From Escherichia phage ev243, in sequence record NC_049955.1: a stretch of DNA of 45,560 nt; one strand, given 5' to 3'. Each line of letters begins with the position of its first letter. Position 1 is the stretch's first letter. A program made the position numbers. This document shows positions 20,801-26,800 of this stretch, one piece after another.

Positions 20801-23800
20801 CTTCACTGGACGTTACAGAAACAGGCACAGATAGTTTCGGGTTTAATTATGGTCGGTTTGTCGTACAGGATTCGATTGTTGGTACAAGTAAAGCGCATAC
20901 CATTATCGGACTGTATTCGAGTACCGGAGGGGTTGATACTTCAGGGGACGAAAAGCATGTAACTATATCCTGTCGGGTAAAAAGTGAAGTTGATAATATC
21001 GCCGTTCGTATTTTATTTGAACATTATGATGGGGAGGTAAGGACATCAATAGGAGCAGCAAACCTGAACCTTACCACCCGCATAATTAGCAAGACAGGTC
21101 AGACAAGCCGTGTTACAGCAAGGTCTGTTAAGGATGATGCAACTGGCTGGATATTTTTTGAGGCTACATTAAAAGCAGATACAACAGAAAATACGGTTGG
21201 TGGTTTTGTCCAGTATTCTCCGGATACAGGGCAGATGGTTACATCAGGGGATTATCTCGATGTAACCACTCCACAGATTGAGGCTGGTACAGGCGCATCA
21301 TCTTTTATTGTTACGGGGACGGCACCGGCAACGCGGGCAAGCGATATGGTGACAGTCCCAATCAAGAATAACCTTTATAATCTTCCTTTTACGGTTCTTT
21401 GTGAGGTACATAAGAACTGGTATAAAACGCCAAATGCAGCACCGCGTGTTTTTGACACATACCGGCATCAGGCAGATGCGGGGATCGTAATGGGGTTTGG
21501 TTCATCAGGTGGGTACGACGGTTTTCCGTATTGTGATATAGGTGGTTCAGACCGACGAATAAATGAAAATGCCGGGCTGGAAAAAATGCTTATTGGTATG
21601 CGGGTAAAGTCCGAACGGTCCACATGTGTAGTCAGTAACGGTAAGTTAAGCAGCGAAACTAAAACCAAATGGGAATATATCCGGAGTACAGCAACCATTC
21701 GCATTGGTGGACAAACTACAGCAGGATTACGCCATTTATTTGGGCATGTGAGGAATTTTCGTCTCTGGCATAAAGAGCTAACAGATGCGCAGCTTGGGGA
21801 GGTTGTGGAGTGAGAGATTTCACGTTGCGTTTCAGTGATAAAGCAGATTTCAGGGCATTTCTCAGGAAACTTAACTGGGAAGAGGACGAAGAGCTGCAGA
21901 ATGCCGTTCTGGTTGATGAGATTGGTTTTACGTTCAGTGAGTCAGGTGTTTCTGCTGACGGGGAGCCTGAATACACGCGAGACGAAGGGTACTTTGTTAA
22001 TATTCGTCTTCTTGACGATGGCTTTGATGAATCCGTGTTCCGTGAGTGGGTGGTTACACCAGAGCGCCCGCTAAGGGAGTGGTTTTAAGGGGAGCAGATG
22101 GATATCACGTCGATACTTCATGCGCTTTGTGCCGTGGCGGTGCAGGTACTGGCTGGTCTTTTTACCGGAAACTGGGCTTACGGGGCGATAGCCGGTTGTA
22201 CGTTCTTCATTGCGCGTGAACACACCCAGGCAGAATATCGCTGGATTGAAATGTTCGGGCATGGCAAGCGGATTAACATGCCGTGGTGGGGCGGTTTTGA
22301 TCCACGTGCATGGGATGTGGCAAGCCTGATGGATTTTGCTGTGCCGGTGGTGGCGTGTCTGCTGGTCTGGCTGTTGGTTAATCGTGGGTGAAAAAGGTGA
22401 GCAGTATATGCAACGAAGGAGGAAACATCATTGCTGGCGGCATGGAAGGCATGCAGGGTGTTGCTGAACCGTGTTGATACATCAACTGCACCTGATATTG
22501 AGTGGCCTACGAACCCTGTCAGGGAGTAATCATTGGGATTATGCCGCAGCACGTCTTAAGCAAGAACGTGCTGCGGTTGGATGCTATTTTTTCCCTGAAG
22601 CGGAAAACATTACTACAGTACCTTGAACCTTGGTTTTAACATTCTCGAAATGCTCTGAGAGTATATGTGTTAAGCCTTCTTCGGAATCTTTTGTGTTTGA
22701 AAAGATGCCTTTCTGATTGTAAATGCGCATCAGTTTTTGACCGAAGCTATTGTGCACAACTCCATCGCCAAGAATTGTGGCTCCGTATAGAGTTCCATCG
22801 TCAGTTAAGGCCTGCGCCGCATTGCGTATTACACAGCTTTTTGTAGATATATTTCCAGGCAGGCAGTGAAGAAGGTAAAACATGGAAATGGAATCAAATT
22901 GACCATGTAACGCCGCGGGATAAGGTTCAAAAACATCATGGCTAATTTTATGTTTAATTTTTGATTCCCCTGCCCTTGTAGATGCCGCGTTCAGGCTAGC
23001 TTCGTTCAAATCCATTAAAGATATCAGACTACTCTCAGGTACGTGAGTAAGGTAAAACCCAGTTCCAACACCAATATCCAGATGGTTGTTACCTAAATGT
23101 TCCAGAAAGTGTGGAAGAAGGTGTTCCTTTGTAGGACATCCCCATGCAAGCCGATTTGATACTCCCAAAACCCACCAGTCATAAAGCTTTAGGGTAAGTG
23201 GTGTGTAAATTTTAGCCCCATCATCTGTGTTTTTTTTCATTAATTTCACCATGTTATAGTTTTATTTGTGAATTAAATCAATTATGGCGATGAATTACAA
23301 GGGGTTAAATGCTGCCGCAGCATAGCGATATTGAAATAGCCTGGTATGCTTCGATACAGCAGGAGCCGAATGGCTGGAAGACCGTCACCACACAGTTCTA
23401 CATCCAGGAATTCAGTGAGTATATTGCGCCACTGCAGGATGCTGTAGATCTGGAAATCGCAACGGAGGAAGAAAGATCGTTGCTGGAGGCATGGAATAAA
23501 TATCGGGTATTGTTGAATCGAGTTGATACATCAGTAGCTCTGGGTATGAAGCTGTTTGTAACTCATGTTACAGTAACAGTCATTACTATCTCGAAGGTGC
23601 AAAATGTATATTGATTTGATATTTTATAAATTTACTTCGAATCTGGCACGTCAACTTTTGATTAAAGTAATATCAGTTTTCGGCGAAAAAAGGACCGTGT
23701 ACATGAGACGATTTCATACAATAATAACAAAAATATGAATATGCTCCCAATGCAATATATGTTTTGCATTGGGAGCAAATAGCGGAATATTTTGAAATTA

Positions 23801-26800
23801 TTGTATTTCTGCTTCAGAATTTCCTGGGCAGTATATATTTTCTATTTTTTGTGGAGTGATCAGGTAATGTACAACTGCTTTATCTACACATAAATTAACT
23901 CCGGTGAGAGCTAATGTATGCCCATCACCATTTATTGTTAGTAACGGGCTGGAAAATTTCTCTGCCATCTTACGGGCATTAATCCAGGGCGTTGTTGGGT
24001 CGTATTTGTGTGCTACAAACAGTAAACCAGAGGGCAGAACAGTATTTTTCAGGCGAGTTTTGTTCAGGTCGCTATGTATTGGCCATAATTCACAAAAATC
24101 AGGTGAATCGGAACGTCCATTGTCAAAGTTAATAGCCGGGAAGGCATTCGCAAGAGCGTCTTTTCGGGATTTTCGCTCTTCTGGTGTTAATTGCTCATCC
24201 CCCTGATCTACACAGAGGATTACCCCCGAAGCATCGCTTGACTCTTCTGAGGCTATCGGAGCACTGAGCGCAGTTTCAATTTCATTACTGACAATCCCCT
24301 GAGAGAACTGGCGTATGGCAGTTGCAAGGGTTGGCCATGATGAACGCCATAGCAGAAGGTCTGTTGTTAATGATATGAGTTCATCTGAAGATATATTTTC
24401 TCCCTTACTGTCTAATAAAGGTTTGTGATGTAATTTTGATAATAGCTCATGGAACTGAGTTATTGCCTTATCTCTGTCTGAAGAAAGCGGGCAACTTTTT
24501 GTACGCGCACACCAGGATGCAAAGCGATCAAACGTTTCCTGATAACTCTGTGCCTGTTTGAGTTGCCATGTGAAGTTGTCCTCCAGGTCATCGATATCGA
24601 CGACTCCATCAAGAACGATAGATCTTACGTTGTAGGGAAAACGTTCTGCATATAAGGCTGCAATTTGAGTTCCATACGAATACGCCACGGCTGTCAGTTG
24701 TTTATCCCCCAAGGCTTGCCTAATACGATCAATATCGTATACAGCCTCGTTAGAGCCGATATGGCGAATGACTTCGGCTCCGGTATTATGGATACAGGCA
24801 TTAATTTTATTTAATACTTGTTGCTTTTCGGTTATGTTTTCCTGAGTCTCTGTATCTGATTGCCGGCAGTTTATTGTCGGAGTGGACTGTCCGACGCCTC
24901 GAGGATCAAATCCAATAATATCCCATGACTCACGAAGATTTGTGACTGGCCAGTCAAAGTTAATATAAGGATTTATGCCTGGTAACCCGGGACCACCACT
25001 TATTATCAGGATACTTCCTTTATGCTTGCTTTTTGCCGGCAATTTTGTCAACGCTAGTTTGACTTGTGATTTTTTTTCATAAGAAGCATCTCCGCCTGTG
25101 TCTGTATATTTTAATGGAACAGACAAATAACCACATAGTAAGTCAGGAGACGGTTTTTCCTCACCAAACCAGTGGTTGAATTGACTGGCCATACAGGATT
25201 GCCACTGTATCTGCTGGGCAGATACGGTTACTGGTAGAAGTAACGTTAAAACAACTTTGAAATGAGTGATTATTTTTCGCATTGTGTCTCTGAATATCGG
25301 AATAAAGATAAGATTTGAATATATTGAGGTCTTGTGTTGCGGTAAGAGATTACACGTTATGACATAGGTTAAATGCTTACAAAATTAGTGGATATTGCCT
25401 ACTTGTAACTGTAAACAAATTCCCCGGGGTTATACAATACCACCGGGGAGAAAATCTGGTTAACTTCGTTAAAAGGTGTACTTAAGACCAGCAGTAGTGA
25501 TGAAGTTATAGTTTTCTATGCCTGCACCATTTTTGCTGTAGTCTGAAGTGTTATCATTGTGATCATAAAGTGAAGTATTACCTTTTTTATTCGTAACCCG
25601 ATTCCATGCGCCTTCAACATAAACTTTTGCGTTAGGTGTTACGTAATAACCTGCATTGACTGCAACAGAATAGTAATTTTGGTCTTTGACTTTACTGCGA
25701 TAAGTGATTCTTTTTCCTGGGTCATAGTGCTCATCGTTATCAGATGCTTCCACCCAGCCGCTGTATTTAAATGTGCCACCTAGCTCAAAATCTTCATAAC
25801 GATAACTTCCAGTCAAGCCAATGTAGGGCATTTTAAAACGTTGTTTGTAGCCGATTGCTCTTTCTCCATTCGGGAAGGAGCCGATATCATCTCTGAATCC
25901 CTCCTCAGAACTGTAGATATAGGAACCACCTCTGGCTGTAAAGCTATAACGGCTTTCCTGATATCCGGCCATGAGTCCCAGGCGGTAATTGGGTTCGTTG
26001 AGGAGCCAGCCTTTGATATTCAGATCAAATTCGTTGGCATAATTGAGTTGTGTATCAGGGTGCCTACTTTCATCTGTCCAGGTTCCGGGGTTACTGGAAT
26101 CCATCCAGTCCTGATCGACCATATTGCCACCTCGGCTGCCGAGAGTAGTCCAGCCCGCAGCCCCAATAGATATCTGGGGCATCAAATCCCAATTAATTGC
26201 ACCTTTAATAATTGCAGCGTTATTGAATTTCCAGTCGAGTTGACTGACTTTTCGGCCTCCTTCTTCAGCTAGATAAACGCGCTCTTTTGTTTTTCCGCTC
26301 AGAGTTCCAAGACTAATGTCCGCATTTATGTTGTCAGGAGTAAACGATATAGTCTCGGTAGAAGCAAAAGAGCTGATCGCAATAGGGGTTGTCAGGACTA
26401 TTCCCAGAAGTTTCGCCCGCATAAAAGTTCTCCATTCAATCGTTTTAATGATTGAATATGTATTTTTTATATCTAACTTAATGAGTCAATTACATATTGC
26501 TCCACTGTTTATATTTTGTTTAGTATTGAATGATTATCACAATGTGCTATCTGTTTTTGGTTTAATTATCTGTTATTGTTTTATGTTGCGGTTTTACTGT
26601 GTGGTTTTTTATGCTTTTGTGGTGTTTTTATCTATTTAAGCGCCATGCCTTTAGAGGCATATAAGCGAAAATAGCATGAGGTTTATCCTCAATTGCTATG
26701 TTTTTTGGTACAAAAAAGAGGGACAAAACTGAGACACATAAGGCCTCACAATGGCTTGCAAGGCTTTACATGTTTTGAGGTAGTGGGACGTGTGAGCGCA

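Follow-up and report, generated by a model that had tools for sequence, protein, structure and literature searches.

Work on OmpT, OmpP and their relatives has dealt with their part in resistance to host antimicrobial peptides, their use as virulence markers and the trouble they cause in protein production, while Hip1 (Rv2224c) of Mycobacterium tuberculosis is a virulence protease with immunomodulatory action and a target for drugs. The catalytic triad of Hip1 is formed by Ser228, Asp463 and His490, and its oxyanion hole by Gly110 and Tyr229 (PMC4022732, PMC13041806); its closest characterised relatives are tripeptidyl peptidases of Streptomyces, which are 30-38% identical to it (PMC4022732). 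The gene described here lies directly downstream of ompT in the genome of Escherichia phage ev243 (NC_049955.1), the 45,560 nucleotides of which are referred to as the window. Sequence comparison and a structural model identify its product as an exported serine hydrolase of the Hip1/TAP-like branch of the alpha/beta-hydrolases, with a catalytic core and a large helical lid. The enzyme family is known and the result is not surprising in kind; what is new is an uncharacterised member which is paired with omptins. This conserved pairing of omptin and hydrolase, absent from the initial annotation of the window, is newly recognised here.

The open reading frame (ORF) for the hydrolase is intact and was found exactly where it had been reported (Table 1), and the three motifs quoted for it were located at residues 124-133 (GFDPRGVGQS), 200-205 (AYSYGT) and 452-456 (GDGHT). 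Its AT-richness, previously judged by eye, was borne out by computation, since the ORF has 42.3% GC (35% at third codon positions), against 55.9% in the structural and late genes, 41% in the cargo block (22584-26892) and 50.3% in the window. Assignment to the aminopeptidase-type alpha/beta-hydrolases proved right, in the hidden Markov model search, at the level of Pfam Abhydrolase_1 (PF00561; 115.9 bits against a cutoff of 25.8, E 3e-33) and of the Abhydrolase_4/TAP-like C-terminal domain (PF08386; 58.9 bits against a cutoff of 21, E 6e-16, residues 386-479), a family which we take to be S33 in the MEROPS sense. The NCBIfam model for prolyl aminopeptidase, TIGR01249, scored only 35.8 bits against a cutoff of 259.75 and covered residues 167-263 alone, so the protein, far below the threshold, is not a member of this equivalog. 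When all PDB sequences were searched with phmmer, the best match was Hip1, over residues 21-475 (E 8e-52), with TnmK1 (E 2e-18) and TnmK2 (E 9e-9) far behind.

The structural prediction requested of the sequence led to the same enzyme. An AlphaFold (AF2) model, built on 60 homologues from Enterobacterales, Pseudomonas, Acinetobacter and Actinobacteria, gave alternating strands and helices with high confidence (pLDDT 90.4, pTM 0.90), and the predicted alpha/beta-hydrolase fold superposes on Hip1: the top six Foldseek matches in the PDB were all Hip1 (TM 0.75-0.83), the leading Hip1 crystal structures giving E 7e-35 and TM 0.77-0.83, and TnmK1 and TnmK2 came next. Helices 236-380 of the model are inserted between core strands and form a helical lid as in Hip1. 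The catalytic residues were assigned by alignment with Hip1 and by conservation across the homologues, which all have Ser202 and Asp428 and of which at least 90% have His455; Asp428 and His455 both fall within the TAP-like domain. The Ser-Asp-His triad expected from the motifs is therefore predicted with S228, D463 and H490 of Hip1 as its counterparts, and it is intact in all eight cassette copies described below. As regards the oxyanion hole, G96-G97-P98-G99 and Y203 align with G109-G110-P111-G112 and Y229 of Hip1, Gly97 corresponding to Gly110.

Export was judged from sequence features and conservation. The leader (MRKIITHFKVVLTLLLPVTVSA, followed by QQ) shows, as had been claimed, the tripartite make-up of a Sec signal peptide: its n-region is basic, its core is hydrophobic (Kyte-Doolittle 9-mer values up to 2.8) and V-S-A occupies positions -3 to -1. 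The ending of the leader, VSA followed by Q or R, is kept in all eight diverged copies despite differing hydrophobic cores. Ten cysteines are present in the protein, most of them invariant in the family, and nine align with cysteines of Hip1, for which five disulfides have been predicted (PMC4022732); the nine shared cysteines fit an enzyme which folds outside the cytoplasm. All ten are kept in seven of the eight cassette copies, the eighth carrying C139Y. This last copy is ompP-linked (locus L085, 6001-7500) and represents a cluster of 1094 sequences, and the replacement would leave Cys163 unpaired if Cys139-Cys163 is a disulfide.

Database entries differ as to where the protein begins. E. 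coli genome annotations give the 494-residue form, labelled 'alpha/beta hydrolase' in thousands of genomes, and in PHROGs the hydrolase is PHROG 20134, 'unknown function'. The RefSeq annotation of phage 2G7b (YP_009910000.1, 464 aa; NC_049954.1, 25071-26465) and the PHROG 20134 model begin at Met31, so that the signal peptide is missing from them (window region concerned, 25190-25282). Since W27 and C30, both placed before this alternative start, are nearly invariant in the 60 homologues, the 464-residue annotation is too short and the 494-residue ORF is correct.

The main addition to the initial annotation concerns the neighbour of the gene. Among 5426 complete E. coli genomes the hydrolase was found in 1254, and in 1234, that is, in nearly all of them, the ompT-hydrolase junction is contiguous, while the corresponding junction with ompP is contiguous in 155 plasmids. 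The F plasmid (NC_002483.1) carries ompP at 32322-33269 and, 104 nt away, a paralogue of the hydrolase with 495 aa at 33374-34861. In the plasmid copies with ompP the omptin is 70% identical to OmpT and the hydrolase 76-79% identical to that of the window, with a spacer of 92-104 nt; in an IncF plasmid copy next to iroN these values are 92%, 95% and 184 nt, and in three further variants 73-80%, 77-82% and 92-188 nt. The diverged hydrolase copies all follow the omptin directly and on the same strand. The flanks of the pair differ with each context, comprising tail fibres, iro, hly, IS66, fimbriae of the Afa or Pap type, or autotransporters, and the identities of omptin and hydrolase co-vary (Pearson r = 0.92 for eight pairs, giving 28 non-independent comparisons). 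Co-varying identities within differing flanks indicate that both genes have been inherited together since OmpT and OmpP split.

During that divergence the hydrolase has been under purifying selection (dN/dS 0.12-0.15 at dS about 1), a result which bears on whether the gene is a decaying passenger with no current function. This would agree with its place in a variable slot, where appY replaces it in some phages and in K-12 and a clean deletion is found in other chromosomes, and with the truncated copies which occur in protein clusters. Nevertheless, such low ratios across copies near synonymous saturation, the retention of the triad and of nine or ten of the ten cysteines in each of the eight diverged copies, and full-length copies at least 99% identical in 1213 E. 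coli genome records make a passenger very improbable. The ORF is thus undisrupted in about 1200 complete E. coli genomes, a point on which the initial annotation could have failed.

The linkage has a clear boundary. That it might be a trait of the whole family was rejected by a tblastn search for OmpT in 84 loci, including 79 that the genome scan had supplied, each extended by 6 kb of flank; an omptin was found only in E. coli loci. Among the loci covered, the linkage is confined to an E. coli-type clade with at least 76% identity to the hydrolase of the window. Elsewhere the surroundings vary: the Yersinia thracica copy stands beside a gene for a subtilase-type autotransporter protease, the Budvicia copy beside genes for a Fic protein and an EptA-like phosphoethanolamine transferase, and a Salmonella copy, carried by a Tn7-like element, near a serralysin-like metalloprotease. 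What lies next to these distant homologues (loci L007, 1902-7449; L006, 2317-7431; L086, 6001-13449) has mostly envelope or secreted functions, with no constant partner.

In view of this ancestry, the most likely function of the hydrolase is that of a periplasmic peptidase, a reading which fold, triad and leader favour with some confidence. Peptidase activity is the best guess because Hip1 cleaves proteins and tripeptide-p-nitroanilide (pNA) substrates and because its characterised relatives are tripeptidyl peptidases; the activities described for Hip1 cover azocasein, GroEL2, tripeptide-pNA substrates and an ester (PMC4022732). In such a scheme, the gene would be expressed on the prophage or plasmid, whether from a weak promoter belonging to it or by transcripts running through the hairpin behind ompT; the product would be exported by the Sec route, lose its leader of 22 residues and fold in the periplasm with five disulfides; and the enzyme, using Ser202, Asp428 and His455 and an oxyanion hole contributed by the GGPG loop and Tyr203, would cleave peptides or exposed protein termini in the manner of Hip1 and the Streptomyces tripeptidyl peptidases. 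Its role might tentatively be placed in finishing off peptides in the periplasm, for example the fragments of cationic host-defence peptides left after OmpT has cut at the surface. Going one step further, the cassette could be a proteolytic system which works in two compartments and is disseminated by phages and plasmids, the omptin cutting cationic host-defence peptides or host proteins at the surface and the hydrolase degrading the fragments, or processing specific envelope or host proteins, in the periplasm. This broader proposal is doubtful; if true, part of the peptide resistance, host association (ompP and cattle) and virulence credited to omptins would depend on the hydrolase.

Several observations weigh against a peptidase acting together with the omptin, the first of them concerning the activity itself. 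Glu113 of Hip1, which forms a salt bridge to the P2 lysine of the substrate, corresponds to a leucine, Leu100, in the window protein and also in each of the eight cassette copies, so that the substrate specificity of Hip1 is not transferable; likewise, Hip1 Glu117 corresponds to Asn104. The next structural neighbours, TnmK1 and TnmK2, are non-peptidases, and Hip1 was itself first called a carboxylesterase, having been deposited as 'Carboxylesterase A', and hydrolyses p-nitrophenyl butyrate (PMC4022732). The searchable literature yielded no activity, localisation or expression data for the hydrolase. The unconserved Glu113, the TnmK neighbours and the carboxylesterase history of Hip1, together with the fact that alpha/beta-hydrolases with this triad include esterases and with the label 'putative lactone hydrolase' given by the depositors of 2G7b, would suit an exported esterase, lipase or lactone hydrolase whose substrate would be a small molecule or a lipid met in the envelope or the gut, its link with the omptin being incidental. 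Such an enzyme, the main rival of the peptidase, is possible but unlikely, since the similarity to Hip1, a proven protease, is far above that to TnmK1 (E values as given above), the TAP-like domain takes its name from tripeptidyl aminopeptidase, and the characterised Hip1 relatives cited are peptidases (PMC4022732).

The remaining points concern cooperation. Homologues with at most 55% identity (Budvicia, Yersinia thracica, Pantoea, Serratia oryzae) have no omptin within 6 kb, nor is there an omptin neighbour in the Salmonella copy on the Tn7-like element or in an IS-flanked Serratia plasmid copy; many ompT-positive genomes lack the hydrolase; and plain co-inheritance of a compact cassette could produce the same pattern of linkage. 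Moreover, no sigma-70 promoter was matched in the 186-nt spacer at a threshold of 9 of 12 positions, the best candidates by eye reaching 7-8 of 12, and a hairpin conserved in K-12, though imperfect in the ompP-type copy, sits between the two genes, which it likely separates or between which it likely attenuates transcription. The spacer, 85-90% conserved in the ColV-like plasmid copy, gave no significant RNA structure (z = +1.1). In the ompP-type copies there are only some 50 nt between hairpin and hydrolase start, with a stronger Shine-Dalgarno sequence (GGAG); this leaves little room for a promoter and suggests that the hydrolase may be transcribed by read-through from the omptin promoter. 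At the other end of the gene, the strong terminator of its own which had been proposed was recovered as a hairpin with a 14-bp stem (Table 1), followed by UAUUCAUAUUUU.

A further explanation is that the gene encodes a defence or superinfection-exclusion factor of the phage, that is, a periplasmic hydrolase directed against proteins of incoming phages or part of an anti-phage system. The PADLOC-DB 'TAP-like protein' model PDLC01094 (C3a206, a candidate anti-phage system) was in fact matched at E 6e-57, the gene sits among prophage cargo, a setting in which functions of this kind are common, and it is also mobile on plasmids, with a distant form on the Tn7-like element. However, the PADLOC match reflects general family similarity, its score being about that obtained with Hip1; the partner genes of a defence system are absent, the adjoining methyltransferase matching 'mad2' only at E 0.003; and the partner that stays the same is an omptin, a protease of host interaction. 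A defence role is accordingly held to be improbable, and the periplasmic peptidase remains the favoured reading.

With respect to its carrier, the hydrolase is, on comparison of phage genomes, dispensable cargo of an argU-integrating lambdoid phage. The gene occupies a non-essential region between the tail-fibre genes and attP, and it is carried at at least 99% identity by nine phage genome records, namely 2G7b (two records), Turner, PhiR26_1, PhiR29_1, PhiR29_2, PhiR30_1, PhiR49_1 and PhiR49_1_star, the host being given in six of them as MG1655, E. coli C or ECOR13; close copies also occur in 18 IMG/VR viral contigs. In phages PhiR68_2 and Kati the structural region is 97% identical up to about 23510-23540 of the window, after which appY and ompT follow as in K-12, and since these closely related phages have appY instead, the hydrolase is dispensable for the phage. 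The presence of appY at this position in the K-12 prophage DLP12, stated in the initial annotation, was also verified: it lies between tfaX and ompT, on the opposite strand. Homology with K-12 decays on the left from about 23490 and is gone by about 23560, and on the right ends just past the ompT hairpin, at about 25400.

A third state of the slot was encountered in chromosomes such as that of strain ESC53083, where the methyltransferase gene is followed almost immediately by ompT. At this junction (locus L095, 2880-3175) position 23328 or so of the window is joined to about 25312 by way of a short repeat, AT(A/T)TTGAA, and about 1985 bp are deleted, including the tfa fragment and the hydrolase. 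The 156 nt of spacer left behind are of the hydrolase type and not appY-type sequence, from which it follows that this 'empty' state arose by deletion from a hydrolase-bearing ancestor. Within the genome set given above, appY DNA was found in 837 and the ompT 3' end in 3083 genomes, so that the K-12 allele is the less common of the two. The locus thus illustrates clearly how cargo alleles are exchanged at a single phage slot, which holds the hydrolase, appY or a deletion. As for the neighbouring cargo, ybcY is a pseudogene in K-12, and the intact methyltransferase is kept beside the slot in phages and chromosomes.

The earlier description of the setting was right as to phage cargo and is adjusted in one respect: opened at cos, the whole window (1-45560) forms an entire lambdoid phage genome and not a segment of a chromosomal prophage. 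Its gene order and map are also those of phage 2G7b (NC_049954, genus Nesevirus), with 95.5% identity across 93% of the first 25 kb. The late genes are followed by the methyltransferase, the tfa fragment, the hydrolase, ompT, a copy of the 3' half of a tRNA-Arg gene and int, and then by the early genes, the porin and the lysis genes (Table 1). ARAGORN detected no complete tRNA in the window. The homology with the right end of K-12 DLP12 covers ompT and ends exactly where the tRNA-like segment ends, which is the pattern expected of attP compared with attR. A second prophage in tandem, which the integrase beyond ompT might have suggested, was rejected, the linear genome of 2G7b being ordered alike and the argU-like segment being attP. 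The record of phage Kati (locus L094, 35378-35461) lists the tRNA-like segment on the att side as an entire 'tRNA-Pro'; this segment matches the argU 3' half, and the annotation is probably an artefact.

Table 1. Coordinates of the hydrolase, its functional elements and other features of the phage ev243 genome (window positions)
Feature	Positions	Strand	Remarks
Nu1 and gpA	188-2633		head and tail genes next
Lom	19086-19685		side tail fibre next; envelope-directed cargo
Class I S-adenosylmethionine (SAM)-dependent methyltransferase, ybcY-like	22584-23252	minus	intact, 222 aa; PHROG 2132, unknown function; neighbouring cargo
Tail-fibre-assembly (tfa) fragment, tfaX-like	23309-23614	plus	Pfam Caudo_TAP, partial; contains left slot edge
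Terminator-like hairpin	23742-23777	minus	21 nt past hydrolase stop; 14-bp stem, dG -24.3 kcal/mol, z = -6.0 vs shuffles
Hydrolase coding sequence	23798-25282	minus	494 aa, ATG start, intact ORF
His455 codon, predicted triad base	23918-23920	minus	G-D-G-H-T; aligns with Hip1 His490
Asp428 codon, predicted triad acid	23999-24001	minus	Y-D-P-T-T-P; aligns with Hip1 Asp463
Ser202 codon, predicted nucleophile	24677-24679	minus	A-Y-S-Y-G elbow; aligns with Hip1 Ser228
Predicted Sec signal peptide	25217-25282	minus	codons 1-22, cleavage A22/Q23 after VSA; from sequence features
ompT-hydrolase spacer	25283-25468	minus	186 nt; weak Shine-Dalgarno GAGA 5 nt before ATG
Hairpin right after ompT stop	25421-25450	minus	CCCCGG...CCGGGG and U-rich tail; likely ompT terminator
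ompT, omptin outer-membrane protease	25469-26422	minus	upstream partner; Pfam Omptin 3e-130; NCBIfam NF008222 708 bits
attP core	about 26852-26892	plus	copy of tRNA-Arg (argU) 3' half, with tRNA-like part at 26852-26889; K-12 alignment
Phage integrase, intD-like	26905-28068	minus	Pfam Phage_integrase 5e-47; order as in 2G7b
Porin	41639-42721	minus	between Q-like region and lysis genes; envelope-directed cargo

In the searchable literature no paper was found describing the hydrolase or its ompP-linked paralogue on the F plasmid and on IncF virulence plasmids. It has probably been met once under a wrong name: in isolate 'cystitis 6' a gene called 'ymcE' was reported 186 bp downstream of ompT (Desloges et al. 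2019, PMC6854850, section 3.5), and as 186 bp is the exact length of the spacer here, this 'ymcE' is probably the hydrolase misnamed. In addition, a genome-wide association study ties ompP to cattle and makes no mention of the neighbouring hydrolase (PMC10088187). An intact gene for a Hip1-like hydrolase stands right behind an omptin gene in about one in four complete E. coli genomes, in the F plasmid and in more than 150 IncF plasmids, so that the cassette is already present in F+ laboratory strains. Where a phenotype or a host association has been ascribed to ompT or ompP because the gene is present, as with ompP and cattle, part of it may belong to the hydrolase, which is a concrete candidate for a fitness or virulence factor beside a much-studied E. 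coli protease, the F plasmid included. Moreover, the substrates and inhibitors already available for Hip1 allow direct tests of this mobile relative in pathogenic E. coli.

Among the systems already described, Hip1 (PDB 5UGQ, 7SFM, 9MD7/8) is the nearest, with full-length homology, a lidded fold, the Y-S-Y-G-T, D-P-x-T-P and H-T motifs and the GGPG loop, and it is an exported, envelope-located enzyme, as the hydrolase is predicted to be. Unlike Hip1, to which it is only about 27% identical, the hydrolase belongs to a Gram-negative host, is encoded by phages and plasmids and has a plain Sec signal peptide, and no link with GroEL2 is implied. Through PF08386, the TAP-like family also takes in the Streptomyces lividans enzymes Tap (tripeptidyl peptidase A, TPP A), SlpD (TPP B) and SlpE (TPP C), the likeness being one of family and description; they are actinobacterial and mycelium-associated, and their aminopeptidase specificity should not be assumed for the E. 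coli protein. TnmK1 and TnmK2 of tiancimycin biosynthesis (PDB 8E18, 8G5T) share the overall fold (TM 0.73-0.77) but are actinobacterial enzymes of natural-product biosynthesis rather than exported peptidases, and are far more distant than Hip1. The prolyl aminopeptidases (TIGR01249; PDB 1QTR, 1AZW) share only the alpha/beta core at the nucleophile elbow (TM about 0.35), being cytoplasmic proteins of about 310 aa with neither the large lid nor the TAP-like domain, and without the signal peptide or the cysteines.

As a piece of mobile DNA, the hydrolase gene resembles the lambdoid morons (lom, bor, and appY/ompT of DLP12) in its non-essential location within a functional phage genome, lower GC, own terminator, variable presence and envelope-directed product, and differs from them in that this product is predicted to be a soluble exported enzyme and not an outer-membrane protein or a regulator. 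The closest counterpart of all is the ompP-linked paralogue of the F and IncF plasmids, which shares with the window hydrolase its position and orientation after the omptin, the triad, the cysteines and the ending of the signal peptide, while it differs in being plasmid-borne, in having OmpP, 70% identical to OmpT, as its partner, and in its shorter spacer (92-104 nt) and stronger Shine-Dalgarno sequence.

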